Below, piece by piece: positions 5,554 to 61,189 of a stretch of 64,000 bases of DNA. The notes beneath the pieces are model-generated. The model had not been told where the DNA came from. It did no database searches and was given only the letters and a program-made list of their open reading frames with translations. Each line of letters begins with the position of its first letter. Position 1 is the stretch's first letter. The position numbers and the translations under genes were made by a program. This DNA comes from Parcubacteria group bacterium GW2011_GWC1_45_13 (GTDB taxonomy: Bacteria > Patescibacteriota > Minisyncoccia > UBA11713 > 2-01-FULL-45-33): positions 1,957-65,956 of the forward strand of contig LCKG01000004.1 of NCBI GenBank assembly GCA_001001285.1. The letters run 5' to 3'.

Positions 5554-6226
5554 CAGCGGCGTTTTTGCCGAATTTCGATTTTCTTACAGGCAATTTTACC
5601 GCTTTTTGAAACTCAGCCACAAAATTTTGCCTTCCGGTTACTCCCCCGCCAACTATTATTAGTTTAGGGTTGTATTCTTTAAAGCGCCATTTCAAATGTT
5701 GGACTAAAAAAATGGCGAGGGCGTAGTTATTTTTTGAATCGCGTAATTTCTGATATTCTTTTTCCCAGCTCTCTGGGTACTCAAATTTTTTAATTTTTAA
5801 AATTTTGCCGGCTCTGCTGATCGCGCGCCCTATGCCCGTCCCCAGCGTAATAAATAAAACGGCCTGCCCGTCTAAATGCGTTAGCCCTGCCTTGCCAGTA
5901 GGCAGGTTTTGGTGGGCTCTCGCGAAACACCTAGCATCGTTATCAAGCCGCAACTTAGACGTCGGACGTCTAAGTTGCGAAATATCAAAATTTTTAAGAT
6001 ATTTAATGTTGGGGCAAAATAGAATTTTATTTCCTGAAACTGCGCCGGGCACTCCGATGCCGATTTTCTTTGCGCGGTAACTTTTTAAAATATTTTCCAA
6101 AAGCTTTTTAAAAGCGGCTAAATTTTTAGGCGTTTTAAACTCGCGAGCTTTTACGGCCCGCTTGCTGTCCCACAAAACCGCGCGTATTTTTGTGCCTCCA
6201 ATGTCTATACCTAACATAATATCCAT
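5531..6226 (-). CDS. ROK family sugar kinase-like protein
   Basis: GIDIGGTK, GIGVPG, DNDA and TLGTGIG motifs; carries two palindromic inserts. Confidence 0.88.
   Translation of the reverse strand: MDIMLGIDIGGTKIRAVLWDSKRAVKAREFKTPKNLAAFKKLLENILKSYRAKKIGIGVPGAVSGNKILFCPNIKYLKNFDISQLRRPTSKLRLDNDARCFARAHQNLPTGKAGLTHLDGQAVLFITLGTGIGRAISRAGKILKIKKFEYPESWEKEYQKLRDSKNNYALAIFLVQHLKWRFKEYNPKLIIVGGGVTGRQNFVAEFQKAVKLPVRKSKFGKNAAAIGAALL
5886..5906. repeat. Family B 21-nt palindrome inside ROK gene
   Basis: CCTGCCTTGCCAGTAGGCAGG; near-identical copies at 20421, 45639, 48672 and 60171. Confidence 0.9.
5949..5979. repeat. Family A (GACGTC) palindrome inside ROK gene
   Basis: CGCAACTTAGACGTC-G-GACGTCTAAGTTGCG with perfect 15-bp arms; same core as the copies around the transposase. 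Confidence 0.9.
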
Positions 6227-6230
6227 CCTT

Positions 6231-6262
6231 AGGCTTGTGTCCTACCGCTAGACGACCCCTCA
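6231..6262 (-). pseudogene. 5' half of a tRNA-Gln-like gene
   Basis: TGAGGGGTCGTCTAGCGGTAGGACACAAGCCT resembles the 5' half of the adjacent tRNA-Gln and ends at the anticodon loop. Confidence 0.7.
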
Positions 6263-6271
6263 CAACCATAA

Positions 6272-6342
6272 CTGGGGGACCTGGATTCGAACCAGGATAC
6301 CATCCTCCAAAGGGATGTGTCCTACCGTTAGACGATCCCCCA
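6272..6342 (-). tRNA. tRNA-Gln(TTG)
   Basis: Cloverleaf with anticodon arm CATCC-CTTTGGA-GGATG and T loop GGTTCGAATCC; CCA not encoded. Confidence 0.95.
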
Positions 6343-6533
6343 GCTATGGTTGCGAATTTTCGATGCTTCTTATAATTTTTTCTTTATTGTATTATTTTAT
6401 CCACGTTTCCGTTTTTTGGCAATTGCGATTTATGATGTTCAGTTTCTTTGAAACTTGACGTATTAACATGTTCGTGTTAGTATGTCAATACAACCTGATA
6501 CCGCCACATAAGGCGGTTTTATGTTGAAAATAC

Positions 6534-6899
6534 ATGAATTATCTCGTTTTAGCGGTAATTACAGCGCTTTTTTCTTTTCCGCAAAAAGCCCAAGAACAAG
6601 TTTTGCCGGAAACGCCGGCCAGCGTTACAGAAAACGCTACTCCGGAAATTTTGGAGAAAATCGCCATTTGTGAATCGCGAGGCAGACATTTTGACGAAAA
6701 CGGCAAAGTGCTTACCGGCGAAATTAATAAATATGACGTTGGCAAATATCAGATCAACGCTCTTTACTGGCGCGAGCTTGCGGAACGGCTCGGACACAAC
6801 ATTGATGACAAAGACGGCAATGAGGCAATGGCGATTGAGCTTTATCGACGGTATGGAACGGCACCGTGGAAATCATCAAAAAAATGCTGGGACAAATAA
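6534..6899 (+). CDS. Secreted lysozyme-like/lytic transglycosylase-like protein
   Basis: Signal peptide, IAICES (catalytic Glu-Ser), DVGKYQIN and PW...CW motifs. Confidence 0.75.
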   Translation: MNYLVLAVITALFSFPQKAQEQVLPETPASVTENATPEILEKIAICESRGRHFDENGKVLTGEINKYDVGKYQINALYWRELAERLGHNIDDKDGNEAMAIELYRRYGTAPWKSSKKCWDK

Positions 6900-6905
6900 A
6901 GCGGA

Positions 6906-7931
6906 TTATTTATACGTCGCGATTTTAATCAGCGCCAACTCCAGAGGCAGAGATGTGGAGTAATCGTCTGTGTGGGTGTCCAATGAATTCATTATTTGGT
7001 GAAGGGCATGCTCGGCACGTCCGGCTTCAGAAGGGACCATCTTTTTAAATTCCGTTATCTCATCTCCGGAAAATTCGCGCTCTAACATACGCTCCGTTTT
7101 AGGGTCAAGCGCCAAAAAATAAATCGCCCGCAAGCTCCGCAAAAGCAATTTTCCCAAAAGCGCTGGGTCTATTCCCTCTTCCAGAACTTTATCTAAAAGT
7201 TTTAAAACTTCTTCAACGTTTTTTTCAAACGCGATTTTTATTATTTTCTCTACGCTCTCCTCCTCCGGCGCCCCTAAAAGTGTGCGCACATCTGCCTCTT
7301 TGATATTTTTCTCTCCTAAACTTGCGATTTGAAACAAAATATTTTCGGCGTCCCGCAAAGAGCCGTCCGCGAAAAAAGCGATCAGTTTCAAAACATCGTC
7401 TTCCGTGGTAAGTTTTTCCTCTAAAGATATCTTTTCAAGTTCTTTGACTATATCCGGAATCGCAACCTTATTAAATTGAAAATGCTGTGTTCTAGAGATT
7501 ATCGTATCTGGAACTTTTGCAGGCTCAGTGGTGGCCAAAATAAAAATAGCATGCTCCGGCGGTTCCTCCAAGGTTTTTAAAAGTGCGTTGAAGGACTCTT
7601 TGGTCAACATATGCACTTCGTCAATAATGTAAGTTTTATATTTTGAGCGGAGCGGCACCGTGCGCACGGCTTCCCGTAAAGCTCTTGCTTCGTCTATCCC
7701 CCGGGATGAAGCCGCGTCAATTTCAATAACATCCTCTTCATAGGAACCTGTTTCTCTAGCCAAAATTCTGGCCACGGTCGTCTTTCCGGTTCCTCTCGGA
7801 CCCGAAAAAAGATAGGCGTGGGCGACACGTTTTTTTGAAACAGCGTTTTTTAAAATTTTGATAGTGTTCTCCTGTCCCACTACATCTTCAAAACGCTGCG
7901 GACGGTATTTTCTATAAAAAACCTGTGACAT
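6906..7931 (-). CDS. dnaX: DNA polymerase III subunit gamma/tau
   Basis: YRKYRPQRF, GPRGTGKT and IIDEVHML; start placed at MSQVFY. Confidence 0.96.
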   Translation of the reverse strand: MSQVFYRKYRPQRFEDVVGQENTIKILKNAVSKKRVAHAYLFSGPRGTGKTTVARILARETGSYEEDVIEIDAASSRGIDEARALREAVRTVPLRSKYKTYIIDEVHMLTKESFNALLKTLEEPPEHAIFILATTEPAKVPDTIISRTQHFQFNKVAIPDIVKELEKISLEEKLTTEDDVLKLIAFFADGSLRDAENILFQIASLGEKNIKEADVRTLLGAPEEESVEKIIKIAFEKNVEEVLKLLDKVLEEGIDPALLGKLLLRSLRAIYFLALDPKTERMLEREFSGDEITEFKKMVPSEAGRAEHALHQIMNSLDTHTDDYSTSLPLELALIKIATYK

Positions 7932-7932
7932 A

Positions 7933-8541
7933 TTATTTTTTAAACACAAAAAACTTAAATCCGATAAAATTCCAGATAAGCACAGCAATATTGGCGATAA
8001 ATTTTGCAACGTTCAGCCATTTTGACGGCCCTACAGCGGAAATTATTGAAACGGGCGCGTATGTTGTAAGTATTATAATAAGGACACTGTTAATGACAAG
8101 CCCACCAATGCCAACCGCGAAAAATTTCGGAAAATCTTGGAACAAATTATTTTCGTCGTAATCTTTAAAAACCCAGAGCTTGTTCCATAAATATCCATTT
8201 ATCACTGCAATTAAAAATCCTGGCGCATTGACCCAGCCGACAACGATGCCAGCGGTTACGCCAGTAATATAGCTTGTAAAGTTTAAAACTGTGAAGTCAA
8301 TCGCTGTTGAAAGAAATCCGGCGGCGGCATAGCGCCCAAATTGCGAAAAAAATGGCTTGACGTGTGCTCCAAGAAAATTGCCTAGCCAAACCCCCACCGC
8401 CCAAAGAATTGGAATAAAAACCAAGGCAACGAGATTTTGATATGGGAAAACAATATTTAAAAAACGCAAAATAACCAGCCCGAGCGCTCCCGTCAAAAAC
8501 CCCGCAACAGCACCGATCAAATAATCTTTTTTGGTGGTCAT
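7933..8541 (-). CDS. GtrA-family membrane protein
   Basis: QFGRY...IDF..LN, NGYLWNKLWVF and WNFIGFKFFVF patterns. Confidence 0.8.
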   Translation of the reverse strand: MTTKKDYLIGAVAGFLTGALGLVILRFLNIVFPYQNLVALVFIPILWAVGVWLGNFLGAHVKPFFSQFGRYAAAGFLSTAIDFTVLNFTSYITGVTAGIVVGWVNAPGFLIAVINGYLWNKLWVFKDYDENNLFQDFPKFFAVGIGGLVINSVLIIILTTYAPVSIISAVGPSKWLNVAKFIANIAVLIWNFIGFKFFVFKK

Positions 8542-10952
8542 AATGCTTGAAGCCGTTTTCTGATTTCTTCCTCCACATCCTCGCGCGGACGGCCATATTT
8601 AGCGCGGGAAAGATTCTTTATATATGCGGCCGCGCTCGCCTCGCCAACTTCCTGTGGGATTGTTTTTATGTTAAACGCCTTGGAAGTCTGCCCGTCTATC
8701 AACAATTTAAGATAGGCGTTGAAATTATCAATGTTCAGCAAATCCTGCGCGGAAAACACTGGTTGAAACTGCTTTTCCATATATTCGGCGTCGTCCGAGC
8801 CGATGCGGAAAGATAAAATTGATCCGACATTTCCAAAAACCGCTTTTTTTATCTCTTCTTCCAATTGCCCGATAAATTGGTGCGCGATTATAAGATTGAG
8901 TTTGTATTTTCTCGCCTCTGACAGAATGGTAGCGATTGATTTTGTCGTAACGTTTTGGAATTCGTCTATATAAAGGTAAAAAGCTCCGCGCTCGGTCTGC
9001 GGCCTGTCTACGCGCGATAGCGCCGCCATTAAAATTTTCCCTACCATAATAAGGCCCAAAAGGCTGGAGTTGAGCTCGCCCAATTTACCCTTGGAAAGAT
9101 TTAAAAGCAAAATTTTCTTTCCGTCCATCACGTCGCGAATATTAAAGGCGGAGCGTTCTTGGGCGATAATTGGGCGCATGATTTCATTGGAAAGAAAAGT
9201 GTCAAATTTGGAGACAACATAAGGCACCATATTAGCGAGCGACTGCTCGCCACCGGCCTTTTCAGCGATTTGCCGCCAAAAAGTTTCCACCACAATATTC
9301 TTACTTCGTGAAAGCTTGTAGTCACGAAATGATTTGTCGGTCAAAACTCTCTCAATCTCTAAAAGCGTATTGCCGCTTTCCGGATCTTCCATTACAAGCA
9401 TCGTTGCGTTTCTAAAATACTGTTCAAACATGGGGCCTCCGGCGATGGACATATTAAAAAGTTTGTTAAAAATTTCAAGAAGTTCGTTGACAATAAGGCT
9501 TTTCTGCTCCGGATACCTAGGATCAAACTCCAGCATGTTTAATCCAATGGGGTGTTTGACGTCCCCTGGGTCGAAATAAATAACGTCTTCCGCGCGCTCC
9601 TTGGGTACCAGAGGCAATATAGACTCAATAAGATCTCCGTGCGGATCAATCACGGCAACACCTTCTCCCCATTGGATATCCTGAATAATCATGTTGTGCA
9701 TAAGACTGGATTTTCCAGTGCCGGTCTGCCCGATTATATAAAAATGGCGTTCTCTGTCCTCGCTTTTAATGCGCACAGTGCGCTCGTCGCCCCTGAAAGA
9801 ACTTATACCCAAAGACAAGCCATCCTTCGGCAAATTTACAGGTGGTGCCGCTTCTCTGGCTTTTAGCGTGCGCACCGTCGGTGCCGCCCTTTTGGAATAA
9901 GGCAGATGATAAATACTCACGATTTCTTCCACATTCAAATTTAAAACGCGGTTTTCGTCAAATAACCTAAATGAAAAATACTCAACCAATTTTCGCAGCG
10001 CCTTCCCGCCGAGCTCTTTTATTTTAAATTCACTGCCTTCCGGATTTGTAAATTGAAAAAAACTTGCTCCCAAATCTTTAAGCAAAGCGTCGGCTCGCTC
10101 CGTGGAAGCGGCGGATGTAAGAATGCGTACGTTGCATTCAAACATGGTTTTGCTTGCTTTCTCGTCCAAAAGCTTGGCAAACTCCTCATCATAAACTGAT
10201 TTTTGGTCTTTGGACTTTTTCTTGCCGAAAAAAATATCCCAAAACACGCTCCAAAACCCAGTTTCACCCAAAACTTCTTTACGGGAGACCCCCTCTTTTA
10301 ATTTTTGCGCAGCGAGATGTGCCCGTTTTTTCGTGTTCTCGCCGCCAAATCTTAAAACGATCTGTAAAGCCGCCCCCTCGCCATATTCTTTGATTTTAGA
10401 AAATGCGGAAGTTATTGTTTCCAAAGGGTCGGCCGCAAGCTTTTGGTAAGTTTTTATCGGTAAAATTTCGGATCCGGAGCGCAAAACCAAAGCGCCGGCA
10501 GTCGCACCCTCAACATTAAAAATATTGTAGTCCGGCGTCCTTTCTATTTTGGCTTCGGGAAAAGCGCCATGAAGCTGATTTTGAAGCAGAGATTCGTAAA
10601 TTTTTGGGAACGCAATGTAGAAAAAAATCTCATTCCCGCGGTTGTGCAATGCGATTTCCAAAGCGAAAGAAGGATTGCCCCATAATTTTTCTTTCAACCC
10701 CTTTCTTCGAAAAGTCGCCAGGCCGCTCAAAAATTGTTCCATCTGCATAATGAAATTTTTCAGAGCTTGGAATTCGTCGCCTTGCTGGGCCTTAGCGATT
10801 TCCGGCGAACTGATTAAATAAAGCGCAAGGCTTAGGCCAGAGCTTACGTCGCGCAGTTTTTTATTTTTTTGGTAAGAAGAAAAAAGTAAAAACCAAAAAA
10901 TCAAGGCGAGGACTATCGGTAAAACGATATAGAAAAAAGTGAAAGAATTCAT
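8538..10952 (-). CDS. VirD4/TraG-HerA-like membrane-anchored ATPase
   Basis: N-terminal TM, Walker A GQTGTGKS, IDPHGD, LYIDEFQ and SEARKY motifs. Confidence 0.88.
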   Translation of the reverse strand: MNSFTFFYIVLPIVLALIFWFLLFSSYQKNKKLRDVSSGLSLALYLISSPEIAKAQQGDEFQALKNFIMQMEQFLSGLATFRRKGLKEKLWGNPSFALEIALHNRGNEIFFYIAFPKIYESLLQNQLHGAFPEAKIERTPDYNIFNVEGATAGALVLRSGSEILPIKTYQKLAADPLETITSAFSKIKEYGEGAALQIVLRFGGENTKKRAHLAAQKLKEGVSRKEVLGETGFWSVFWDIFFGKKKSKDQKSVYDEEFAKLLDEKASKTMFECNVRILTSAASTERADALLKDLGASFFQFTNPEGSEFKIKELGGKALRKLVEYFSFRLFDENRVLNLNVEEIVSIYHLPYSKRAAPTVRTLKAREAAPPVNLPKDGLSLGISSFRGDERTVRIKSEDRERHFYIIGQTGTGKSSLMHNMIIQDIQWGEGVAVIDPHGDLIESILPLVPKERAEDVIYFDPGDVKHPIGLNMLEFDPRYPEQKSLIVNELLEIFNKLFNMSIAGGPMFEQYFRNATMLVMEDPESGNTLLEIERVLTDKSFRDYKLSRSKNIVVETFWRQIAEKAGGEQSLANMVPYVVSKFDTFLSNEIMRPIIAQERSAFNIRDVMDGKKILLLNLSKGKLGELNSSLLGLIMVGKILMAALSRVDRPQTERGAFYLYIDEFQNVTTKSIATILSEARKYKLNLIIAHQFIGQLEEEIKKAVFGNVGSILSFRIGSDDAEYMEKQFQPVFSAQDLLNIDNFNAYLKLLIDGQTSKAFNIKTIPQEVGEASAAAYIKNLSRAKYGRPREDVEEEIRKRLQAL

Positions 10953-11344
10953 GCTTTAAGTTTTCTAGCCGCAAGCAGTTTTTCGTAATATTTATCGGCC
11001 AGTGCATCGTGAAATTCATCCAATAGATGCGGATTTTTTAAGTGATTCGCGGCTTTAACGGCAATAGCCAGTCCTTGGGCAAACGCCAGACCTATCAACC
11101 TTTCTACAATTTGCTGGTGCTCTTTTTCTTTTAGAGCGTAAGCCGCCTTTTGGGCGGTGTCATCCGAAACAGCAAGGAGTCCGCCGATAGGCATAGACGT
11201 TTTTCCAAGAGAAACGTCTATTATGACTTCCCGCACCATTTCTTTTTCTGGCTTTTCCGCGCCACCAGTGGCCAGCTCTTTCTTTTTGGCCTCCAGCCGC
11301 TCTTCCAGCCATTTTATTTCTTCATGAACAGCTTCCTGAAGCAT
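10949..11344 (-). CDS. Hypothetical protein
   Basis: 131 aa ORF whose stop overlaps the ATPase start. Confidence 0.75.
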   Translation of the reverse strand: MLQEAVHEEIKWLEERLEAKKKELATGGAEKPEKEMVREVIIDVSLGKTSMPIGGLLAVSDDTAQKAAYALKEKEHQQIVERLIGLAFAQGLAIAVKAANHLKNPHLLDEFHDALADKYYEKLLAARKLKA

Positions 11345-11374
11345 GTATTTATAATAACATGCTATAATTAAATT

Positions 11375-16645: not shown

Positions 16646-16720
16646 TGCCCCCGCCGGGATTTGAACCCGGGTTACATGGATGAGAACCATGCGTCCTAGA
16701 CCAGACTAGACGACAGGGGC
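16646..16720 (-). tRNA. tRNA-Glu(CTC)
   Basis: Acceptor GCCCCTG/CGGGGGC, anticodon arm CATGG-TTCTCAT-CCATG and GGTTCAAATCC. Confidence 0.93.
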
Positions 16721-16739
16721 CTGTCTGCGCAGGCAGGCC
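16718..16739. repeat. Short family B-like palindrome between murF and tRNA-Glu
   Basis: GGCCTGTCTGCGCAGGCAGGCC. Confidence 0.65.
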
Positions 16740-20069: not shown

Positions 20070-20954
20070 TTAAATTTTTTCTAAAACTCTTAATTTGGCC
20101 GACCTGGAACTAGGATTTTTAATAATTTCTTCCTGGGATGCGGTTTTTGGTTTTTTAGTCAGAATGATTGCCTTTTTTCCGACAACGGCGGAAAAAAAGT
20201 TTTTTACGATTCTGTCTTCCAGAGAATGATAGGAAATAATCGCCAGCCTCCCGCCGGCATCCAACGCGTCAAACGATTTAGGCAGAGCTTCTGTTAAAGC
20301 TTCCAACTCGTTGTTTACCGCTATCCGCAAAGCTTGGAATATCCGCGCCAGTATCTTCTCTCGGCCATCCGGCTTTTGCGCGCCCAGAGCATTGAGCAAA
20401 TCTTTTACTGAAATGATGCGCCTGCCTTGCCGGTAGGCAGGCTGTTTTTTTCTGAACTCCATGATTTTTTTGGCAAACAGCCTTGCTTTTGGTTCTTGTC
20501 CGAAATTTTTAAATATTTCTGCGAGCCTGTCTTCGGGATATCCATTTAATATTTCGGCAGCCGTGTTCGCGGATTTTTTATTTAAATTCATAAATAACGC
20601 CTCCTCCGGCTTTTGAAAAGAAAATCCTCTTCCGCTTTGTTCAAGATGCCACCGCGACATGCCGAGATCGAATAATACGGCTTTTATTTTGTTAAACCCA
20701 AGTTTTTTGATAATTTCATCAATATCTTTGAAATTTCCCCAAATAGCTGTAATATTTTTGTCTCCCTCCATCCGTTCAATCATGCTTTTATCCTGGTCTA
20801 TCCCCAGCACTTTGCCGCCTGGTTTTATAAGCTCCAGCATCATTCGCGCGTGCCCGCCGCCGTTCAAGGTGGCGTCCACCGCGTTATCCCCCGGCTTAAG
20901 ATTTAAAAGTACTTTCAATTCTTCAGTTAAAACCGGCGTGTGGATCTCTTGCAT
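20070..20954 (-). CDS. rsmH: 16S rRNA m4C1402 methyltransferase
   Basis: HTPVL, DATLNGGGH, FQALRIAVN, ISYHSLEDR and RSAKLR motifs. Confidence 0.97.
   Translation of the reverse strand: MQEIHTPVLTEELKVLLNLKPGDNAVDATLNGGGHARMMLELIKPGGKVLGIDQDKSMIERMEGDKNITAIWGNFKDIDEIIKKLGFNKIKAVLFDLGMSRWHLEQSGRGFSFQKPEEALFMNLNKKSANTAAEILNGYPEDRLAEIFKNFGQEPKARLFAKKIMEFRKKQPAYRQGRRIISVKDLLNALGAQKPDGREKILARIFQALRIAVNNELEALTEALPKSFDALDAGGRLAIISYHSLEDRIVKNFFSAVVGKKAIILTKKPKTASQEEIIKNPSSRSAKLRVLEKI
20421..20441. repeat. Family B 21-nt palindrome inside rsmH
   Basis: CCTGCCTTGCCGGTAGGCAGG adds PAYRQGR. Confidence 0.92.
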
Positions 20955-28866: not shown

Positions 28867-28893
28867 CCACTTGGACGTCCGACGTCCAAGTGG
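28867..28893. repeat. Family A palindrome just downstream of transposase
   Basis: CCACTTGGACGTC-C-GACGTCCAAGTGG. Confidence 0.93.
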
Positions 28894-28896
28894 CTA

Positions 28897-29541
28897 TTAA
28901 TTTTCTAAAGATAACAGAACCTCTAGCTCTTTTAATAATTCTTTTCTTTGTAAAATATTTTTTAATGACTCTTCTCCAAATGTCTTATATTCTTTTTTGT
29001 TTTTAAATTGCTTAAGAATAATATTTTTATTACAAAGGTTTTCTTCACTTGAACTAATAAATTCTTCCCAACTAGAATAGGCGCCCCCCTCTTTTAATCT
29101 ATGTGCGCGGTTATTTAAATTTACATAAACGCTTGCATGCAATAAATATTCATTGGAATCAATATGACTAGATTTAAATTTGCCCTGAAAAAGTACGCCG
29201 CTCCTTTTATATTTATTATTAAAATACTTTGTATAGCCACCATTTAATCTTTTCATAAACTCGCTTAATCCACCGTCTGTTTTTGGCTCCAAAATCATAT
29301 GATAATGATTTGGATTAAGGCAATAGCAAATGATATTCACCAACTTGGACGTCTGACGTCCAAGTCGGGGTTTATCGAATGAATTTTCGTAAATACTGCC
29401 TATTGGTTCTAGAGAATTAAATTCCTTCATACTTTGAAGAAACCTCTTGAAATCATAATCGTTGTTAAATACAATACGCTTATCAGTGCCGCGGTTATAG
29501 ATATGATAAAATTCACCAATCATGAAAGCGGTTTTTCTCAT
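28897..29541 (-). CDS. HUH tyrosine transposase (Y1/IS200-like, REP-associated RAYT type)
   Basis: YHIYNRG, YCL.PNHYH (HUH), YFN.KY.RSG.LFQ..FKS, YV.LN and YSS motifs. Confidence 0.9.
   Translation of the reverse strand: MRKTAFMIGEFYHIYNRGTDKRIVFNNDYDFKRFLQSMKEFNSLEPIGSIYENSFDKPRLGRQTSKLVNIICYCLNPNHYHMILEPKTDGGLSEFMKRLNGGYTKYFNNKYKRSGVLFQGKFKSSHIDSNEYLLHASVYVNLNNRAHRLKEGGAYSSWEEFISSSEENLCNKNIILKQFKNKKEYKTFGEESLKNILQRKELLKELEVLLSLEN
29343..29365. repeat. Family A palindrome inside the transposase gene
   Basis: ACTTGGACGTC-T-GACGTCCAAGT, read as RLGRQTSKL. Confidence 0.92.
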
Positions 29542-29555
29542 GATACTATATTAGC

Positions 29556-29578
29556 ACTTGGACGTCCGACGTCCAAGT
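29556..29578. repeat. Family A palindrome just upstream of transposase
   Basis: ACTTGGACGTC-C-GACGTCCAAGT. Confidence 0.93.
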
Positions 29579-45403: not shown

Positions 45404-47308
45404 TTATTTCTTATCCTCTCCCTCTTCTTTAAAATCGGCGTCTTTGATGTCAGGGCCCGATTTATCTCCGCCACTGCCATCTTCCGGTTTTTTATACATC
45501 GCTTCGCCGATTTTGGAGAGAGATTGGGCGAGCTCCGTTTCAGCGGAGCGGATTCCAGCGACATCGTCTCCGTCTTTAACTTTTTTAAGTGCCTCTATTT
45601 TTTGGCTAACTTCGTCTTTTATCCCCTGTTCAATTTTGCCTGCCTTGCCGTCAGGCAGGTCACCCGCATCGCGCAACGACTTTTCTGCGGTGTAAACCAA
45701 AGCGTCCGCGCGGTTTTTGGCTTCAACCAATTCTTTTTTCTTTTTATCGTCTTCGGCGTGGAGTTCCGCGTCCTTTTTCATTTTTTCAATTTCATCTTTA
45801 GAAAGCCCCGTGGAAGCTTCAATCCTGATGGATTGCTCTTTATTCGTCGCCTTGTCCTTGGCTTTTACGGATAAAATTCCGTTTGCGTCAATATCAAAGC
45901 TGACTTCCACCTGCGGCATGCCGCGAGGCGATGGAGGAATCCCATCCAAAATAAATCTGCCGAGGGTTTTGTTATCTCCCGCCATCTCGCGCTCGCCCTG
46001 CAAAACGTGAATTTCCACGGAAGTTTGGTTGTCTGCGGCGGTCGAGAAAACCTGTGAACGCGCTACTGGCACCGTAGTATTTTTTTCAATAATTTTGGTC
46101 ATCACTCCCCCCAAGGTCTCAATACCCAAAGAAAGCGGGGTGACGTCCAAAAGCAAAACGTCCTTCACGTCGCCCTGCAAAATTCCGCCCTGCACCGCCG
46201 CGCCTACTGCCACAACTTCGTCCGGATTTATGGAAAGATTAGCTTCTTTCCCAAAAAGTTTTTTAATGCCCGCTTGAATCGCTGGCATTCTCGTTTGGCC
46301 CCCGACCAAAACTATTTCGTCAATTTCCTGCATTTTAAAACCCGATTCATCCACCACTTTCTTAGTAATCTCAAAAGACCTATTTAAATAATCTCCTACC
46401 AGCTCTTCCAGTTTGGCACGGGTGAATTTCATCAAAAGATGCCGCGGGCCGGAGGCGTCGGATGTGATGAAAGGAATATTTATTTCCGTCTCAACCGTGG
46501 TGGAAAGCTCGTGCTTGGCTTTCTCCGCAGCTTCTTTCAGGCGCTGAAGAGCCAAAACATCCTTGGTGACATCAATGCCCGATTCTTTTTTAAATTCCAC
46601 AGCGATATATTGGATAATTTTTTGATCAAAATCGTCCCCTCCCAAATGCGTGTCGCCTCCCGTGGCACGGACTTCAATGGTATCATCCCCAATTTCCAAA
46701 ACGGAAAGGTCGAATGTGCCTCCACCGTAATCGTAAACCACTATTTTTTCATTTTTCTTTTTATTTAATCCGTAGGCTAAAGCCGCGGCTGTGGGTTCGT
46801 TTAAAATCCGGCGAACTTGCAAACCAGCAATCTCGCCGGCCGCTTTGGTTGCTTGTCTTTGGGCATCGTCAAAATAAGCAGGCACGGTAATGATGGCTTC
46901 TTCAATTTTTTCTCCCAGCTTGGCTTCGGCGTCGGTTCTTAATTTCGCTAAAATCATCGCCGAAATTTCTTCCGGCCGGTACCATTTTTCATTTATTTTT
47001 ACGTCCACTCCGCCGTTGGCCGATTCTTTGATTTCATAAGGCAACAAGGTTTTATCGCGTTTAACTTCCGTATCGCCGAATTTCCTGCCAATCAATCGTT
47101 TTACCGAAAAAATGGTGTTTTTGGGGTTGGTCACTGCCTGTCTTTTTGCCAAAAGGCCGACCAGGCGCTCGCCTGTTTTTGAAAACGCGACCATTGAGGG
47201 CGTGGTGCGCGCGCCCTCCGCGTTTTCCAATATTTTCGGGACTCCCCCTTCCACGACCGCCATCGCGGAGTTGGTCGTTCCCAAGTCTATTCCTAAAATT
47301 TTTGCCAT
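45404..47308 (-). CDS. dnaK: Chaperone DnaK
   Basis: [21 protein letters not shown] and NPDEVVA motifs. Confidence 0.99.
45639..45659. repeat. Family B 21-nt palindrome inside dnaK
   Basis: CCTGCCTTGCCGTCAGGCAGG; removal restores GGT GAC AAA ATT (GDKI). Confidence 0.93.
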
Positions 47309-48671: not shown

Positions 48672-48691
48672 CCTGCCTGCCGGTAGGCAGG
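48672..48691. repeat. Family B palindrome, intergenic 20-nt copy
   Basis: CCTGCCTGCCGGTAGGCAGG. Confidence 0.9.
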
Positions 48692-52821: not shown

Positions 52822-52822
52822 T

Positions 52823-54219: not shown

Positions 54220-54263
54220 ATATCCAAAATAGCATGATGCCTAAAAAGCTGTCAATATAAAAA

Positions 54264-54288
54264 AATTGACTATCCTGGATAGTCAATT
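54264..54288 (-). terminator. Intrinsic terminator
   Basis: AATTGACTATCC-A-GGATAGTCAATT followed by a T run on the minus strand. Confidence 0.75.
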
Positions 54289-54296
54289 AAACTTGT

Positions 54297-54628: not shown

Positions 54629-54639
54629 CCAAAACATTT

Positions 54640-54810
54640 TTACTTCGTTGGTTCTACCTCTCGAAACAGTCTTCTTTCTTGGATATGCGGATGTTGCTCT
54701 TTGACAATTTTCCACGCATCGTCTTCATCTTCCGCTGGAAAATTAATTTCTGTAGTAGTTTTCCAGCCCAAAGCCAGGCATGGATTCCATCCCTTAAGTA
54801 GAAAGTTCAT
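54640..54810 (-). CDS. Hypothetical 56-aa protein
   Basis: AGGAGGA SD, then MNFLLKGWNPCLALGW...REVEPTK; below the ORF-track cutoff. Confidence 0.55.
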   Translation of the reverse strand: MNFLLKGWNPCLALGWKTTTEINFPAEDEDDAWKIVKEQHPHIQERRLFREVEPTK

Positions 54811-54867
54811 ATATCCTCCTTGAAGTAGTTTTGGATACTAACGAGTATATCTATCGCAACCTTAGCA

Positions 54868-56163
54868 TTACCTTAAAATAATGTCAATGCGGCTGGGGTC
54901 TTTAGGAGGTTTTTTGTAAAATAGGCCTATCCAGAAGGGTTTAAAATTTATTTCCGCCCGCGAAATATAGGGGTATTCGCCCAGAAGCGTGCTGGCCGAT
55001 GAAATGTCTTTTTCTATTATTTTATTTTTAACGGCTACTTGGTCCAGCACAACCTCCACCTCGGCCATGCCAAAAACCTGAATGGTAAAGCTGGGAACAT
55101 CAAATTTATAATTGATTAATTTAATATTTAAATTTTCTAAATTTTTAATTCGTACCGTCGCGCCGTTAAAACCAGCCAATCGCGGATTATCTTTCAGTAA
55201 ATCCGTTTCAAGTTCGCTTCTGGACATAGTCGCAGCCCTAATTTCGCCTTCCATATCGAAAGTGAAATTGTCGGCCACAGCGCCGGCGACCGGATTACTT
55301 TCTTCTTTTAACGCGATGTATTCAACGGATGCCGGAAGCAAAAATTCTTCTTGGGGAATCTTTTTCAAAATTATAGAAACTGCTTCTTTTTGGGCTTCAT
55401 TTACTAAACCGGCTAGCGCCGCGTCCCGGTCGTTTTTTCCGACAACGACTTGTTCTCCCTCGGAACCACCCTGGATTTCTGTTTTTGATCTGCCAAAAAT
55501 CAGTTCGTATTTAAGAGTTCCTTTTAGCCCTGGCAAAGTAAAATCCGCAAGGCCTAAATTGTAAAGAGCGCCAGGCTTGTCCGCCAAAACAGCGATTTCT
55601 TTGGAACCAGGTGTCAGCTTCCCGCTTTCTGATTTGGCCGCCGGCACCACTATGGTTTTGGGAATCCGGTAAATATTTCCGTTGGGAGCCTCCATGCGCG
55701 TGGAAGCGATCAAGACTTGCGCGTCTCTTGATTTATTAAAAATAACCACAACTCCTCCGGCTTTAGCGTCCTCGGTTCTTTTTTCCGTCGCTTTAAACAA
55801 ACCGCTTCTGATATCCGGCAAAGTAAGAGTCCTAAAAACCGGGGGGGCCTGATCCTGGTATCTCTTTAAAATTAAAGTTTTTTCTATTTGCCAAGAAGCG
55901 GTTTTAGGCGTCAGCGTCACCTCCATTTCGGCAAAAAACATACTGCCTAAAATAAAAACCGTTAAAACTACCAAGATAATAAAAGTCACCCAGCCTCTTT
56001 TTCCCCGGCGCCCGCGCTGTTTTAAAACCTTGATGGTTGGTGATGGCTCTTTAAAAAACTGAGAAGTTATTTCTTTTTTTGGCGCCGACACGATATCTGA
56101 AATAACGCGTTTGCCGCTCGCGGGAACTATGTCTATAAAATTTTCTTTAGATTTTTTTTGCAT
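54868..56163 (-). CDS. Membrane-anchored protein of unknown function (baseplate J-like region possible)
   Basis: Single TM; A.G.V.IFN...LIA.TR and AD.PG..YN patterns; start placed at MQKKSK. Confidence 0.7.
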   Translation of the reverse strand: MQKKSKENFIDIVPASGKRVISDIVSAPKKEITSQFFKEPSPTIKVLKQRGRRGKRGWVTFIILVVLTVFILGSMFFAEMEVTLTPKTASWQIEKTLILKRYQDQAPPVFRTLTLPDIRSGLFKATEKRTEDAKAGGVVVIFNKSRDAQVLIASTRMEAPNGNIYRIPKTIVVPAAKSESGKLTPGSKEIAVLADKPGALYNLGLADFTLPGLKGTLKYELIFGRSKTEIQGGSEGEQVVVGKNDRDAALAGLVNEAQKEAVSIILKKIPQEEFLLPASVEYIALKEESNPVAGAVADNFTFDMEGEIRAATMSRSELETDLLKDNPRLAGFNGATVRIKNLENLNIKLINYKFDVPSFTIQVFGMAEVEVVLDQVAVKNKIIEKDISSASTLLGEYPYISRAEINFKPFWIGLFYKKPPKDPSRIDIILR

Positions 56164-57331
56164 CCGCGAAAAGAATAAGGGCTGATAAAATAATATCTCC
56201 TCCTCCCACAAGCTGGTCTGATGGGTAAAGCATGTCTTGAAAAGCTTCGGCTCGCAAAATTTGGGGCTCGATATCAGCGCCGAAATCTTTCTTAAAACTA
56301 TCTTTCAAAAAACTGGAAAATAAAGTGAAATCCGCCCCGCCCCCGGAAATTATAATTCTTTTAGGAACAATCCCAGCCGAAATCGACGTAAAAGTATTTT
56401 TAAGAACGTTTTTCAAGCTTGCCCACCAATCGGCAAGCGCCGGAGAAAGCGCCCGCTCCAATTTCGTTCTTAAAGTTTCGTCCAAAGTTCCTGAAGTGTA
56501 TTTTCTAAAAATTGCCTCCACATCTTTCTGATCTATTTTCAAAGAAGTGGAAATTCTTCTGGATAAAGTGCGAATGCCGAAAGCCGAGGCCCCCGCGTGC
56601 TCAATATTATTTTTGTCAGCCCAGAAAATTTCCGTAACCTCCCCGCCGATATCTGCAACTAAAACCGGGTCCGTAAAATTCTCCGTCGCCTTAAGCAACC
56701 GCCAGAGAGCCCTTGAGTCCGAATAATAGCGCGTTGCTGCTTTCGGAAAAAATTTTTCTCTGGCATTTTCAATATAATCTTTTAAAGTTCTACTGATTAA
56801 AGTAAAAATCATTTCAGTCTCCAACACGCGTCCTTTATAACTTGCGGCGTTTTCAATACTATAGCCGTTAATTTTGACGCTCAAAACTTCACGCCCCACA
56901 ACAAAAAGATTTTTGGTCGCAACGTCCGTTCCAATTGATTTTACCATAGCGTCAATTTCGCTTTCGGAAATAATTTTATCAGGATTGGCTCTTTCAATCT
57001 TTTGTTGCGCTTTTTTATACGCAAAGAACGGATCAGAGAGAGCGATTAAGACAGCGTCAACATGATGCGAAGCGCCGTAAGCATCCTTGAATATTTTTAA
57101 AAAACCGTCTTTTAAAATATAGGGAAGTTTTTGTTCGTCGCCATTTATTTTGTAACCGAATAAATCAATAGGATACCTTAAAACTTTCAAAATTTCGCAG
57201 GGGTCAACAATGGATTTAGGATAATTTTTTTCATACCGAACAGCGACAACAGCCGAAATGGAGGCTGTCCCCAAGTCAATCGCCAAGATATGCGTTTTTC
57301 CTCTTTCTCTCCCAAAAAGCCATGAGAGCAT
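56147..57331 (-). CDS. Divergent FtsA-like actin-fold protein
   Basis: AIDLGTASI, DIGGEVTE and ISGGGA motifs. Confidence 0.72.
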   Translation of the reverse strand: MLSWLFGRERGKTHILAIDLGTASISAVVAVRYEKNYPKSIVDPCEILKVLRYPIDLFGYKINGDEQKLPYILKDGFLKIFKDAYGASHHVDAVLIALSDPFFAYKKAQQKIERANPDKIISESEIDAMVKSIGTDVATKNLFVVGREVLSVKINGYSIENAASYKGRVLETEMIFTLISRTLKDYIENAREKFFPKAATRYYSDSRALWRLLKATENFTDPVLVADIGGEVTEIFWADKNNIEHAGASAFGIRTLSRRISTSLKIDQKDVEAIFRKYTSGTLDETLRTKLERALSPALADWWASLKNVLKNTFTSISAGIVPKRIIISGGGADFTLFSSFLKDSFKKDFGADIEPQILRAEAFQDMLYPSDQLVGGGDIILSALILFADAKKI

Positions 57332-57406
57332 GAAGGTATTATAACACGCCATTTACAAATTTTAAGCAATTGCTATGATGCTGGGCAGGGAAGGAGGACA
57401 AAAACC

Positions 57407-57649
57407 ATGCCGGTAGACAATGTGCTTAGCGATTTTTGGAGTCGCCCTTGGAAATGCGGAGTATACTATAATCGCCATCACAGGCGCCGAGGGTTTATAA
57501 CTTGGCTAAAAATGGGCGGGTGGACGCGTGAAGGGATAAAACAAGAGGCTGAAAACAGAAAGGTCCCGCTCGAGCGTGTCTATAAAGAGCATCTTCGGCG
57601 ACACAGATACAATCCGGAGTGTTTCTTAAGCCGCGCTGAATCCGTCTAA
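57407..57649 (+). CDS. Hypothetical small basic protein
   Basis: AAGGAGG SD upstream; terminator GCCCCG...CGGGGC-T5 at ~57665-57690. Confidence 0.62.
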   Translation: MPVDNVLSDFWSRPWKCGVYYNRHHRRRGFITWLKMGGWTREGIKQEAENRKVPLERVYKEHLRRHRYNPECFLSRAESV

Positions 57650-57781
57650 GATTCCGGTCAATCGGCCCCGACTTCACGGGGCTTTTTATTTTACTCAATT
57701 TCATTTAATTTCACTCAATTACTAATTTTACTTTCTTTTGCGATAGCAAAAGAAATGCAAATCTTGAAATTAGAAAATTTC

Positions 57782-59551
57782 TTATTCCACAGTTGCACGG
57801 ATGCGGCGAATGCCGGAGCCGACGGCTTCCTGCTTCAATATTTTAAACCGGCCGATTTCGGAAGTGTTTTTGACGTGCGGGCCACTGCAGAGCTCTCTTG
57901 AGAAAATTTCCGGCGGGTCGACCTTAAAATCCCCCACTAAATAAACTTTAACTCTTGCTGGATATTTTTCCTTAAAAAAATGCTGCGCGCCCAATTTTAA
58001 GGCGTCTTCATAAGCCATCTCTTTCATCTCAACATGATATTTTTTACCAACCGCAAAATTTACTAGATCTTCAACTTTTTTAACTTCTTCATCCGTAAGT
58101 TTTCTGTCAAACGAAAAATCAAATCTTGTCCGCTCGGCCGTGATGTCAGAACCGGCCTGTTTTACTCCTTCTCCCAAAACTTTTCTCAAAGCTGCCTGCA
58201 AAAGATGCGTCACCGTGTGCAATCTTGTTACTTTTTTCAACTCTGCTTCGTCCGCGGCTTTCAATTCTCCCGTATCCAGCAGCAACCCATGCCCTCCGAA
58301 TTTTTTCTCAATGCCAGCGCGGGATATTTCCTGATGTTTTTGAAATTCTTTATTAAAACTCTCCTCATCTACAGAATGCCCGCCTTGCCGAACTAAATCT
58401 TTTATAATATCAATTGTTAACCCGTAAGTTTGATGAAAATAAAAAGCATCTTTACCAGAAATAACTTTTAAGTCATGAGATTTGTAAGTCCCTCTTTCTT
58501 TCGGGGCATTAATTTGAGCTTCAATTTCCGGATATTTTTTTAAAAACTCATTCAGTCCATTTTCTAAAGTTTTATTAAATTTGTTAATTTCCGCATTGAT
58601 TTCTTTAATGATTTTTTCTTTGTTTATCATTAACTCTTTGTAGAAATCGTAATAATTTATTACTCCTTCAATTTCTGGAATAAACAACTCAAATGATTTA
58701 TGACCAATTGTCCTCCATCTTACCGCAATACGTCGAATCAATCTTCTTAAAATATAACCAGCCTCCTTATTGGATGGGCTGACTCCATCAGCTATTAAAA
58801 AGACACTACCTTTTAAATGGTCTGCGAGAACTCTGCCATCAATACCATAAGCAGGAAGGAGTTTAAATGGTTTTTGAAATAAATCAGTTTCAAAAATAGT
58901 TTTTTTGCCCTGCGAGACCATCGCGAGGCGCTCCAGCCCCATGCCGGTGTCCACGCCTAGCGTTTTCAGTTTTTCAAAAGTACTATCAGGTTTTTTGTAA
59001 TATTCATTAAAAACAATGTTCCACATCTCCACGCCGTTTATGTAAATTTCTGTCGTTGGACCGCAAGGCCCCTCCGTGCCGGTCGGCCCCCAAAAGTTAT
59101 CCTCGCGGCCGGCTTTTCGGATGTCTTTCACGCCGAGCGATTGCCAGATTTTATAAGATTCCTCGTCAAACGGCGTCTTTTCATCACCCGCGAAAACCGT
59201 GACGTATTCAATTTTAAGCCCGAGTGATTCCAAAAATTTTTTAGCGTACTTTATCGCCTCTTCCTTAAAATATCCTCCGAAACTGAAATTCCCCAACATC
59301 TCAAAAAAAGTAAGGTGCGATTCGTCCCCTACTTCATCAATGTCGGAAGTGCGGAAGCATTTTTGAATTGAAACAACATTAGGCGCGGGCGCAAGCGACG
59401 GCTCGGTATAATATTTCTTAAACTGCTGCATTCCTGCGGTGGTCAAAAGCACCGATAGGTCGTCTGGAATTAAAGAAGAAGATGGTACAATTTTGTGCCC
59501 GCGTTCTTTAAAAAATTCCAGAAACTTTTCTCGAAGCTCTGCGGAAGACAT
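57782..59551 (-). CDS. alaS: Alanine-tRNA ligase (lacks C-Ala domain)
   Basis: AGMQQFK, HLTFFEMLGNFSFG, DTGMGLER, HTVTHLL and ELCSGPHV motifs. Confidence 0.97.
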   Translation of the reverse strand: MSSAELREKFLEFFKERGHKIVPSSSLIPDDLSVLLTTAGMQQFKKYYTEPSLAPAPNVVSIQKCFRTSDIDEVGDESHLTFFEMLGNFSFGGYFKEEAIKYAKKFLESLGLKIEYVTVFAGDEKTPFDEESYKIWQSLGVKDIRKAGREDNFWGPTGTEGPCGPTTEIYINGVEMWNIVFNEYYKKPDSTFEKLKTLGVDTGMGLERLAMVSQGKKTIFETDLFQKPFKLLPAYGIDGRVLADHLKGSVFLIADGVSPSNKEAGYILRRLIRRIAVRWRTIGHKSFELFIPEIEGVINYYDFYKELMINKEKIIKEINAEINKFNKTLENGLNEFLKKYPEIEAQINAPKERGTYKSHDLKVISGKDAFYFHQTYGLTIDIIKDLVRQGGHSVDEESFNKEFQKHQEISRAGIEKKFGGHGLLLDTGELKAADEAELKKVTRLHTVTHLLQAALRKVLGEGVKQAGSDITAERTRFDFSFDRKLTDEEVKKVEDLVNFAVGKKYHVEMKEMAYEDALKLGAQHFFKEKYPARVKVYLVGDFKVDPPEIFSRELCSGPHVKNTSEIGRFKILKQEAVGSGIRRIRATVE

Positions 59552-59571
59552 AGGGCTATTTTAGCATTAAA

Positions 59572-59626
59572 ATCATTGCTTTAGCAATGATCCCGACGTA
59601 CGTCGGGATGAAAGCTAAAGCTTTCA
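59572..59626. repeat. Three abutting palindromes upstream of alaS
   Basis: ATCATTGCT-TT-AGCAATGAT, ATCCCGACGTACGTCGGGAT and TGAAAGCT-AA-AGCTTTCA. Confidence 0.85.
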
Positions 59627-59676
59627 AAATAAAAAAGCGGCAGACGCTTATGCCACTCTAATTTTGCGTCTGCCGC
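59627..59676 (-). terminator. Terminator-like hairpin after the 59682..60059 ORF
   Basis: GCGGCAGACGC / GCGTCTGCCGC stem with a T run on the minus strand. Confidence 0.65.
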
Positions 59677-59681
59677 CAAAG

Positions 59682-60059
59682 TTACCTGCGCGAATGCTTC
59701 AATCTAGCGGTGTTTTTCCCCGCCAGCCGCTCCTCTTTCCAACGCACCAGCCCCTTGCGAATATATTGGGGGTCAAACCCCAAAGCACCGCAGATGTTAT
59801 TGAAGGAAAAAAGCCAATCCTTTTCCTCTTCCAAAACCCACTCCTCCGCGTCGCGAAACATCCTCTTTCTTTTGCCGATGCGGGCGGCGACATATTTCTG
59901 GAAGCAAGTCACCGCATCCTTCAGCACTGCCAGCATGAGGTCCTTTTCCGGCTCTAATTGGGCCTTACTGCGCAAGGTCTCAAAATATTGAGCCGGAATA
60001 AGGGTATCCGACTGAAATAAAGACCCTACTTTTTCATCTACCGAGAGACCATTTTCCAT
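59682..60059 (-). CDS. Hypothetical protein, probably acquired
   Basis: GAAGGAGG SD and its own terminator; LEPEK.LMLAVL.DA..CFQKY...AEEW...FSF.NIC..LG.DP.YIR. Confidence 0.8.
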   Translation of the reverse strand: MENGLSVDEKVGSLFQSDTLIPAQYFETLRSKAQLEPEKDLMLAVLKDAVTCFQKYVAARIGKRKRMFRDAEEWVLEEEKDWLFSFNNICGALGFDPQYIRKGLVRWKEERLAGKNTARLKHSRR

Positions 60060-60127
60060 GTTTACGTCCTCCTTCTTTCTTTTTTAACCATAGCACAAGC
60101 TAAGAAAAAAATCAAGAGGCAGGATAA

Positions 60128-61189
60128 TTATACGACTATGACGCCTCCCCCGAGCATTTCTTCATCCTTGCCCGGCTTGCCGTCGGGCAGGTAAAAAACA
60201 GCCGACTGTCCAGGGGCTACAGCGCGCTGGGGAAAATCAAAAACGACTCGCCCATCGCCGAAGAGAGAGCATGCCTGAAGCGGCTGACGGTGGCGAATAC
60301 GAACTTGGCATGGAAAAGGCATTTCTGGTCCGCCAGCCGGCGGATTACCAATCCAATTAAAATTTTCCGCGAACAATTCTCTTTTATAAAGTGCTGAATC
60401 TTGTTTTTGAGATACCATTATAGTATTCGTTGCCAAATCTTTTTTTGCTACATAAACTGGCTCCGCTTGCCCGCCCAGCGCTAAACCGTGCCTTTGGCCA
60501 ATGGTATAAAAATGTGCGCCATCATGCTCGCCAATTTTCTTGCCATCGGACGTCATAATCACGCCTGATTTTTGAGGCAATGTTTCCCTTATGAAATCCG
60601 CAAAATTAACTTTGCCGACAAAACAAAGTCCTTGCGAATCTTTTTTATTGGCCACCGGCAAACCAAAACCGCGCGCGAGATCTCGTGCTTCGCTTTTTAA
60701 ATAATTCCCGATCGGGAACAAGCAATGTTTAAGCTGGTCTTGCGTCAAAGTCCACAAGAAATAGGATTGGTCCTTATTTTTGTCTTTGGCCGCAAACAAT
60801 TTGCTTCCAAACTTTCTTACATAATGTCCTGTCGCCATAAAGTCAGCTCCCGCCTCCAGTGCGCGCTTCAAAAAAATACCGAACTTTATTTCTTTATTGC
60901 ACATAACGTCCGGATTGGGTGTGCGGCCAGCCATATATTCGCAAATCATATAATCGTAAACGGCTTTTTTATATTCTTTTTTAAAATCCCAAACCAAAAA
61001 CGGAATGCCTAAAACCGCCGCAACGCGCATCGCGTCTTGTTTATCTTCGTTATTTTCACATCCTTCCCAACAAATCATATGCGCCCCGGTCACGTCATAA
61101 CCTTGTTTTTGCAACAACAAAGCCGCCACGGACGAATCCACTCCGCCTGACATTGCCACGAAGACCTTTTTATTCAAAACTTTGCGCAT
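60128..61189 (-). CDS. mnmA: tRNA 2-thiouridylase MnmA
   Basis: AMSGGVDSSVAA, TPNPDVMCN, KDQSYFL, DSQGLCF and PGQSAVFY motifs. Confidence 0.97.
   Translation of the reverse strand: MRKVLNKKVFVAMSGGVDSSVAALLLQKQGYDVTGAHMICWEGCENNEDKQDAMRVAAVLGIPFLVWDFKKEYKKAVYDYMICEYMAGRTPNPDVMCNKEIKFGIFLKRALEAGADFMATGHYVRKFGSKLFAAKDKNKDQSYFLWTLTQDQLKHCLFPIGNYLKSEARDLARGFGLPVANKKDSQGLCFVGKVNFADFIRETLPQKSGVIMTSDGKKIGEHDGAHFYTIGQRHGLALGGQAEPVYVAKKDLATNTIMVSQKQDSALYKRELFAENFNWIGNPPAGGPEMPFPCQVRIRHRQPLQACSLFGDGRVVFDFPQRAVAPGQSAVFYLPDGKPGKDEEMLGGGVIVV
60171..60191. repeat. Family B 21-nt palindrome (diverged) inside mnmA
   Basis: CCCGGCTTGCCGTCGGGCAGG; removal restores VFYKDEEMLGGGVI. Confidence 0.88.
60329..60344. 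repeat. Family D single hairpin inside mnmA
   Basis: TCCGCC-AGCC-GGCGGA read as PPAGG; similar CCGCCTGCCGGCGG is intergenic at 53702-53715. Confidence 0.6.

Follow-up and report, generated by a model that had tools for sequence, protein, structure and literature searches.

A 20-nt palindrome in genes of Parcubacteria is likely a very small selfish DNA element

We describe family B, a palindromic unit of 20-21 nucleotides (nt) that recurs in a 64,000-nt stretch of DNA (the window; G000:C4:1957-65956) from the assembly of Parcubacteria group bacterium GW2011_GWC1_45_13 (G000; 755,799 bp, 28 contigs, 95% complete). The core of the family is a perfect 20-nt palindrome, CCTGCCTGCCGGCAGGCAGG, and the 21-mer, CCTGCCTTGCCGGCAGGCAGG, is this core with one extra near-central base. 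On balance, the units are probably copies of an ultra-short, non-autonomous hairpin element with this core, inserted without target duplication at many sites of G000 and its relatives, and we consider family B likely to be a very small selfish DNA element. Copies in genes are predicted to be translated as 7-residue loops, and the finding of only 21-nt versions in genes is likely to reflect selection for an intact reading frame.

Sequencing runs that hold window DNA (designated by X numbers) come from groundwater and soil metagenomes. Among the genomes compared, G002 is a congener of G000, and G001, G003 and G010 are congeners of genomes in which the dnaK site is occupied.

Five copies in the window

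Four of the five window copies lie in genes, all on the minus strand: in a ROK kinase gene (CCTGCCTTGCCAGTAGGCAGG, 5886..5906, read LPTGKAG), in rsmH, also called mraW (CCTGCCTTGCCGGTAGGCAGG, 20421..20441, residues 172-178, read PAYRQGR in a second frame), in dnaK (CCTGCCTTGCCGTCAGGCAGG, 45639..45659, residues 552-558, read LPDGKAG) and, as a diverged copy, in mnmA (CCCGGCTTGCCGTCGGGCAGG, 60171..60191, read LPDGKPG). The fifth is an intergenic 20-nt copy with no strand assigned (CCTGCCTGCCGGTAGGCAGG, 48672..48691), which is followed by a T-rich run and at which we found neither a tRNA (ARAGORN) nor an Rfam family. These sequences and translations agree with an earlier note, made from the letters alone, that had listed the same five units and peptides. 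The four host genes were assigned by Pfam to HSP70/DnaK, MraW/RsmH, MnmA and ROK, and, as the note had also said, the same DNA is read in two frames and in a single orientation relative to the gene. Scanning the window with the 21-mer (≤3 mismatches) returned 3 matches versus 0 in 100 shuffles. The mnmA copy carries 5 mismatches and would form a weaker DNA hairpin (-2.9 kcal/mol vs -6 to -8 kcal/mol for the other copies).

An assembly or adapter artifact, which the earlier note had named as a possible refutation, finds no support in independent data. Logan contigs of other studies and samples run across every one of the five copies and list neither a difference nor an indel (X6 for the ROK copy, X12 for rsmH, X6 and X17 for dnaK, and X13 and X6 for both mnmA and the intergenic copy), although such contigs drop rare variants and could therefore lack rare alleles.

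Exact insertion at modeled loop positions

The proposal that a 21-nt unit is inserted precisely in frame held for dnaK, rsmH and mnmA, each of which is exactly 7 amino acids (aa) longer in ortholog alignments, but not for the ROK kinase, whose loop is 12 aa longer than in congeners and does not form a clean 21-nt indel. In dnaK, the unit adds exactly 21 nt (+7 aa, LPDGKAG) between AGD and KI relative to 26 of 29 aligned relatives, and alignment with E. coli DnaK leaves a 7-residue gap opposite the insert. PAYRQGR in RsmH is an exact +7-aa insertion found in G000 alone of the 19 relatives aligned. For MnmA, G000 reads FY-LPDGKPG-KDEEMLGGG and G008 reads FYKDEEMLGGG (+7 aa); a solved MnmA structure (2hma) is also 7 residues shorter at this site. 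Consistent with the earlier observation that target-site duplications are not evident, none was found at any clean site, namely dnaK, rsmH, the 11 sites that distinguish G002 from G000, and a non-coding repeat in G090 (both described below).

Structure models place the DnaK and RsmH inserts at predicted loop positions. In the dnaK model (mean pLDDT 65), the insert falls in a non-helical segment, 550-560, between lid helices 504-549 and 561-578, with pLDDT <50 at 550-556. The rsmH model (pLDDT 90) puts it between helices 157-169 and 183-189 in a loop, 170-182, that forms the lowest-confidence block.

In mnmA of relatives (L184-L195), the match is split near residue 140-145 in 10 of 19 cases within one open frame of 377-500 aa, which suggests a further, larger in-frame insertion in this gene.

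Family B across the genome

The family is far larger than the window indicates. A looser regular expression gave 44 genome-wide matches in G000, of which 33 have a length of exactly 21 nt; 20 shuffles yielded 0-4 matches each. We tested 31 further host open reading frames (ORFs) of G000 and found a Pfam family in 22. Hosts beyond the window include GyrB, PheS, L15, MetAP, an RNase J-like protein, TopA, phosphoglucomutase, GroEL and L9 (two copies), as well as RnpA, CTP synthase, NusA, ClpP, UvrD, HtrA, Mfd and HisRS. Counting the four window genes, 27 of the 36 listed copies lie in Pfam-supported genes, and 16 of these 27 are read in the LPxGKAG-type frame.

Several sequences recur unchanged in G000, with five copies of the master form, three of CCTGTCTGCCGACAAGGCAGG and five of CCCGCCTGCCGGACGGGCAGG; subfamilies with several identical copies indicate copying rather than independent mutation. 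Some genic copies carry codon changes (TGC>TAC in rsmH, GCC>GAC in dnaK). The flanks of the 36 oriented G000 copies share no common tetranucleotide.

Turnover among relatives and the 20- and 21-nt forms

Among 20 genomes of the same GTDB family, the 21-mer (≤2 mismatches) is present in 19, with 1-18 copies each, and the 20-mer (≤1 mismatch) in 16, while reversed-pattern controls gave 0 matches in these genomes. For the congener G002, 23 occupied sites were aligned with their counterparts in G000. Eleven correspond to exact 21-nt gaps in G000 and one to a 42-nt gap where a copy is nested in a copy; two are filled in both genomes (pheS and one decayed copy), and nine are complex or unalignable. 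Four of the 11 clean gaps consist of the 20-mer core plus one flanking base, so that the indel is still 21 nt, and all clean genic indels are multiples of three, including these.

The earlier note had associated the 20-nt form with intergenic DNA and the 21-nt form with coding DNA, and this was borne out in part. A non-coding repeat unit in G090 is filled twice with exactly 20 nt and empty once, with no duplication. Across 75 sites in four relatives, however, an ORF ≥450 nt holds 22 of 41 20-mers, compared with 32 of 34 21-mers (Fisher p=8e-5); about six of these 22 20-mers lie no more than 20 codons into the ORF, perhaps ahead of the true start codon. The extra base of the 21-mers varies (T, C, A or G beside position 7-8), yielding LPAG-K/E/Q-AG. 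We infer from these patterns a basic unit of 20 nt, of which only versions that preserve the frame persist in genes.

Where copies are nested, the incoming unit interrupts the host copy near its center. The MnmA loop illustrates both turnover and nesting, holding family B in G000, a canonical 20-mer in G005 and, in G019, a 20-mer into which a 21-mer is nested. Nested, tRNA and 5S sites are all stem-loop junctions. We rejected insertion into pre-existing hairpins as an explanation for genes, as 40-nt windows at the 11 empty coding sites are no more structured than their surroundings (mean percentile 0.69).

Other hairpin families fill family-B sites of sister genomes: the MnmA loop of G002, G007 and G001 (L175, L184 and L190) holds a different family, CCCTCCGAAGCTTTAGCTGAGGAGGG, and near position 19900 of contig C6, G000 has CCCCGACGCTTTGGTCGGGG at the place where G002 has a 20-mer.

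Shared sites and recombination at dnaK

The dnaK site is filled in G000, G014 and G016, which belong to three genera, and empty in the congeners G001, G002, G003 and G010. The G000 and G016 inserts have the derived GCC>GAC change in common. Over the last 150 nt upstream of the insert, informative sites group G000 with its congeners by 16:2, whereas downstream they group G000 with G014 by 19:4 (switch p=6e-6). As judged from these sites, a recombination breakpoint adjoins the insert, and homologous recombination appears to have transferred the occupied allele. The junction at dnaK is unchanged in contigs of other samples, which makes a chimeric bin unlikely.

Distribution beyond the family

Of 151 genomes sampled across the phylum, 28 contain the exact 20-mer, and the exact 21-mer occurs in at least 122 loci across phyla, where a calculation gives ∼0.3 expected by chance in 596 Gb. 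Hosts among the matches listed include Bacteroidota, Gammaproteobacteria, Omnitrophota, Planctomycetota, Nitrospirota, Ignavibacteria and many Patescibacteria, and the Bacteroidota among them include isolates of Arenibacter, Aequorivita, Marinoscillum, Croceitalea and Hyunsoonleella. In 60 listed cross-phylum loci with a spanning ORF ≥450 nt, the six frames are used unevenly (31/12/6/6/3/2; chi-square p=2e-11), and the two favored frames are cysteine-free readings. The 20-mer was also found in 40 IMG/VR loci; where IMG/VR contigs carry paired 20-mers, no nuclease was found among the ORFs between the copies.

Tandem heptamer repeats border both sides of the unit in 9 of 121 loci elsewhere versus 0 of 485 control positions. 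These loci, all in other phyla (L043, L045, L046, L063, L083, L109, L124, L130 and L136), each have a different 7-mer and carry the 21-mer mid-array. One G000 copy (C25:2993) has heptamer flanks as well. Some heptamer-array copies lie inside genes, such as argG (L063), and in L054 a separate heptamer array is present in the same gene.

GIY-YIG cassettes at tRNA genes

These genomes carry 6-10 small GIY-YIG ORFs each, and in seven loci (G002, G019, G008, G180, G136, G090 and one IMG/VR contig) the family-B 20-mer stands beside one of 77-118 aa, either 6-41 nt upstream of its start (6 loci) or 10 nt after its stop (1 locus). In six of the seven, part of a tRNA is duplicated next to an intact copy of the same tRNA, and the palindrome interrupts this fragment within its D-arm or anticodon stem; in L385, the seventh, an intact tRNA-Pro is followed by a hairpin repeat that contains the palindrome. 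The GIY-YIG proteins beside the 20-mer share 31-70% identity with one another and 28-48% with those of G000 itself, a weak hint of what may be a dedicated GIY-YIG lineage.

In G000 itself, GIY-YIG cassettes are arranged alike but with different hairpins: five of the six small G000 GIY-YIG genes examined carry other hairpins or inverted repeats. ORFs of 81-90 aa at tRNA loci lie behind a hairpin-split tRNA 5' fragment at C3:62375-63148, C12:7460-7669 and C10:2675-2884, with an 18-nt hairpin (CCCCGATGGCCATCGGGG), a ∼30-nt double hairpin and others; C3 has a tandem pair of these cassettes around tRNA-Gln. At C3:50339-50634, an 86-aa GIY-YIG ORF just before tRNA-Gly is bounded by an 11-bp inverted repeat (CCCCGTTAGAG / CTCTAACGGGG), and the orthologous place in G002 (L342, G002:C25) holds a nested hairpin pile that includes the family-B 21-mer. 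A search of G000 for two palindrome halves around cargo gave no convincing pair, and DUF559 was not found in this genome. Its reverse transcriptase is encoded by one gene, which is near no family-B copy.

Y1 transposases and their own palindromes

Genes for Y1 transposases (Y1_Tnp) number 6 in G000, where they are RAYT-like, 7 in G002, 9 in G019, 2 in G001 and 0 in G012. Five of the six in G000 are each flanked by their own 23-27-nt palindrome (ACTTGG...CCAAGT type, TTGTCAAACAT...), and a scan around the sixth, on C8, found no flanking palindrome. These palindromes are also dispersed in G000 and occur inside long ORFs. One such gene lies in the window (28897-29541, minus strand, region 28867-29578), encoding a 214-aa protein that matches PF01797 with 35.8 bits and NF047646 with 29 bits, the latter below the cut-off. 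The palindrome (CC)ACTTGGACGTCGGACGTCCAAGT(GG) flanks it at 28867-28893 and 29556-29578, and the gene itself contains a third, in-frame copy at 29343-29365 that is read RLGRQTSKL.

The 23-nt ACTTGG...CCAAGT palindromes, which are probably the "family A" of the earlier note, give 18 regular-expression matches in G000 (e.g. C3:47993, C5:19849, C7:32021, C12:9837, C14:10664 and C25:3737). Several copies lie in ORFs of 700-3300 nt and are read, for example, as TWVSDTQV; one is in a GH1 gene that also holds family B.

Relation to known systems

A parallel in size is offered by the small dispersed repeats (SDRs) of Nostocaceae, which Elhai and colleagues (2008, Genome Res 18:1484) reportedly described as very small mobile repeated elements of 21-27 nt confined to one cyanobacterial group. 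Family B resembles SDRs in this size class, in its dispersed multi-copy hairpin units, in self-insertion and in frequent embedding in tandem heptamers, and an enzyme is known for neither; unlike SDRs, family B occurs in many phyla and mostly inside protein-coding genes. Rickettsia palindromic elements (RPEs), reportedly described by Ogata and colleagues in 2000 as units of roughly 100-150 bp in one genus, are likewise palindromic repeats that sit in frame within housekeeping genes and are read as extra peptide segments. Family B differs in its length of 20-21 nt, its presence in many phyla and its host, a 0.76-Mb groundwater genome. MITEs are defined by terminal inverted repeats and target-site duplication, and family B shows no target-site duplication.

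A mechanistic parallel is provided by Ssn proteins, single-domain GIY-YIG single-strand nucleases with cognate hairpin repeats (SRM/NTS). According to Chenal et al. (2025, PMC11893778), NTS are rarely genic (2%), a selfish-element origin is raised by the authors, and whether Ssn nucleases mobilize their own hairpins is left open. The likeness, seen at the seven loci elsewhere but at none of the six small GIY-YIG genes examined in G000, lies in a small single-domain GIY-YIG gene with an adjoining cognate 20-50-nt hairpin repeat and more hairpin copies dispersed. Family B differs in that its palindrome is perfect, has no direction and lacks the upstream GTC motif, and in that 27 of its 36 copies are genic, compared with 2% of NTS. 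Its cassette also lies inside tRNA genes, and the word tRNA is absent from the Ssn paper (PMC11893778). By analogy, the family-B cassette may work like an Ssn/hairpin pair; we do not assign it as a member of the Ssn group.

With REP/RAYT systems (PMC3116915, PMC3733652), family B has in common short GC-rich palindromes, many dispersed copies, the lack of target duplication and a single-strand hairpin logic, and G000 itself holds RAYT-like genes flanked by their own palindromes. However, no cognate RAYT was found for family B in G000, and no GTAG/CGTC tag stands at the foot of the hairpin. REP elements are extragenic, whereas family B is mostly intragenic (27/36) and identical in sequence across phyla. 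Our literature searches returned no paper with the 20/21-mer sequence or the LPAGKAG peptide, and no description of in-frame micro-palindromes in candidate-phyla bacteria.

Proposed explanation and its alternatives

The earlier note had viewed the units as a micro-element filtered by reading frame and a source of peptide insertions. Presence/absence differences between relatives, subfamilies of identical copies, nesting, the bias toward cysteine-free frames and the modeled loops all agree with this view. In the mechanism that we propose, a copy-and-insert step would be catalyzed in trans by a hairpin-specific single-strand DNA enzyme, for which the likeliest candidate would be the 77-118-aa GIY-YIG nuclease from tRNA-gene cassettes, seen at seven loci elsewhere and not found in the G000 assembly. 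Frames encoding cysteine or arginine-rich peptides would be purged, leaving mostly LPAG(K/E/Q)AG and PA(L/S)PAGR, and homologous recombination would further pass occupied alleles among relatives, for which dnaK provides a suggestive case.

Several observations weigh against this explanation. None of the six small GIY-YIG genes examined in G000 lies beside family B, though the genome holds ∼36 copies. The association elsewhere comprises seven loci only, and pseudo-tRNA fragments may be no more than places where such insertions are tolerated. The cassette nuclease matches Pfam GIY-YIG only, its best solved relatives being UPF0213 proteins (1zg2 and 1ywl, E ∼3e-7), and the published degenerate SRM search sequence has 0 matches in G000 and overlaps 0 of the 36 family-B copies. 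A nuclease alone does not account for insertion. Neither a hairpin nor a shared motif marks the empty coding sites, so neither accounts for the choice of target. Contigs of the four + four runs compared, which drop rare variants, contain no empty-site allele that would point to recent activity in the population; the case for translation of the inserts is an argument from reading-frame bias.

The strongest competitor attributes the mobilization of family B, as a REP-like element, to an IS200/IS605-type Y1 (RAYT-like) transposase acting in trans. Y1 enzymes of this type work on single-stranded hairpins; their excision is precise and their insertion leaves no target duplication, in line with the absence of duplications at family-B sites. 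Y1_Tnp counts track palindrome load in five genomes, and G000 shows that REP/RAYT-type hairpins do land in genes, with five Y1 genes that have their own dispersed palindromes. Yet the correlation rests on five related genomes, none of the six G000 Y1 genes is flanked by family-B hairpins (CCTGCCTGCC type), and no conserved GTAG/CGTC-type tag is present in family-B flanks. In ∼250 loci around family-B copies, the Y1 profile has a single match (L371), compared with 8 for GIY-YIG. We therefore regard a Y1 enzyme as an unlikely mobilizer. It is quite improbable, in our judgment, that there is little or no transposition today and that a few old insertions were spread by homologous recombination or transformation, with occasional precise loss. 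The dnaK breakpoint, the filling of the same site in three genera with empty congeners and the lack of polymorphic empty alleles in the contigs compared would all be expected under such a history, but recombination cannot make new sites, and G000 and G002 differ at no fewer than 11 clean sites in different genes. Nested copies and several identical copies per subfamily require insertion events, and the same 20/21-mer is found in unrelated genes of unrelated phyla.

The earlier note had also considered that the hairpin might be removed from, or act on, the mRNA; if it were removed or bypassed there, the stretch would go untranslated. A stable hairpin (-6 to -8 kcal/mol as DNA) is compatible with this, and the family-B unit is stop-free in all six frames, so an open frame alone is no proof of translation. 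Excision is nonetheless unsupported because removing the 20-nt core would shift the frame and because particular frames, strongly biased to cysteine-free peptides, are favored, a bias that argues for translation. Every clean genic indel is a multiple of three, even where a 20-mer is completed by a flanking base, and the codon changes in rsmH and dnaK would be unexpected in a stretch that never reaches the ribosome; we consider the mRNA explanation very improbable. Hardly credible is the proposal that family B is no element at all and represents either a convergent functional site (for protein binding, uptake or a restriction-type signal) or an assembly or adapter artifact. Perfect palindromes are typical of binding sites, and most records with the unit are metagenome bins, but ortholog alignments reveal insertions rather than substitutions, the unit is present in isolate genomes, and assemblies made independently are identical at every base. 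Individual copies have point changes, and orthologous sites are shared, as at pheS in G000 and G002.

Under a bolder version of the hairpin-element explanation, no mobile DNA known to cross phyla would be smaller than the 20-nt palindrome, which would serve as the cognate hairpin of cassettes that encode a mini GIY-YIG single-strand nuclease, reside in tRNA genes and scatter solo copies through genomes and phage-like contigs. It would survive in genes only as 21-nt versions that write an LPAGKAG loop into DnaK, GroEL, GyrB, TopA, NusA and dozens more essential proteins, and it would spread between genera in a homing-like manner with co-conversion of flanks. We offer this combination tentatively and think it doubtful that all of its parts hold together.

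If the hairpin-element explanation is true, minimal-genome bacteria have one and the same heptapeptide added to their most conserved proteins again and again by a unit of 20-21 nt, which also crosses phylum boundaries unchanged. Family B would then provide a natural replicated experiment on insertion-tolerant loops of essential proteins, a marker of recombination between uncultured lineages and a concrete substrate for the question of whether mini GIY-YIG (Ssn-like) nucleases mobilize hairpins. Its recurrent indels could also distort the alignment of marker genes such as dnaK and the phylogenies drawn from them.

Further observations at RNA genes

Between the 23S and 5S rRNA genes of G000 (C11:13755-14080, L293), a second 5S 5' fragment is interrupted by CCTG plus the 20-mer at GGAACTACC^TCTTCC, and the 5S gene at this locus has ∼30 nt in a place for which the Rfam model has 6. 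At window positions 16720-16737, CCTGTCTGCGCAGGCAGG, an 18-nt unit related to the palindrome, directly abuts tRNA-Glu (16646-16720), and a similar 18-mer lies at C28:2226 inside a 532-aa ORF. At window positions 6238-6296, beside tRNA-Gln (6271-6343), contigs of all four runs compared contain a joint 6296>6238 with 19-21 other letters between its sides, which suggests a variant or duplicated arrangement of the tRNA-Gln locus.

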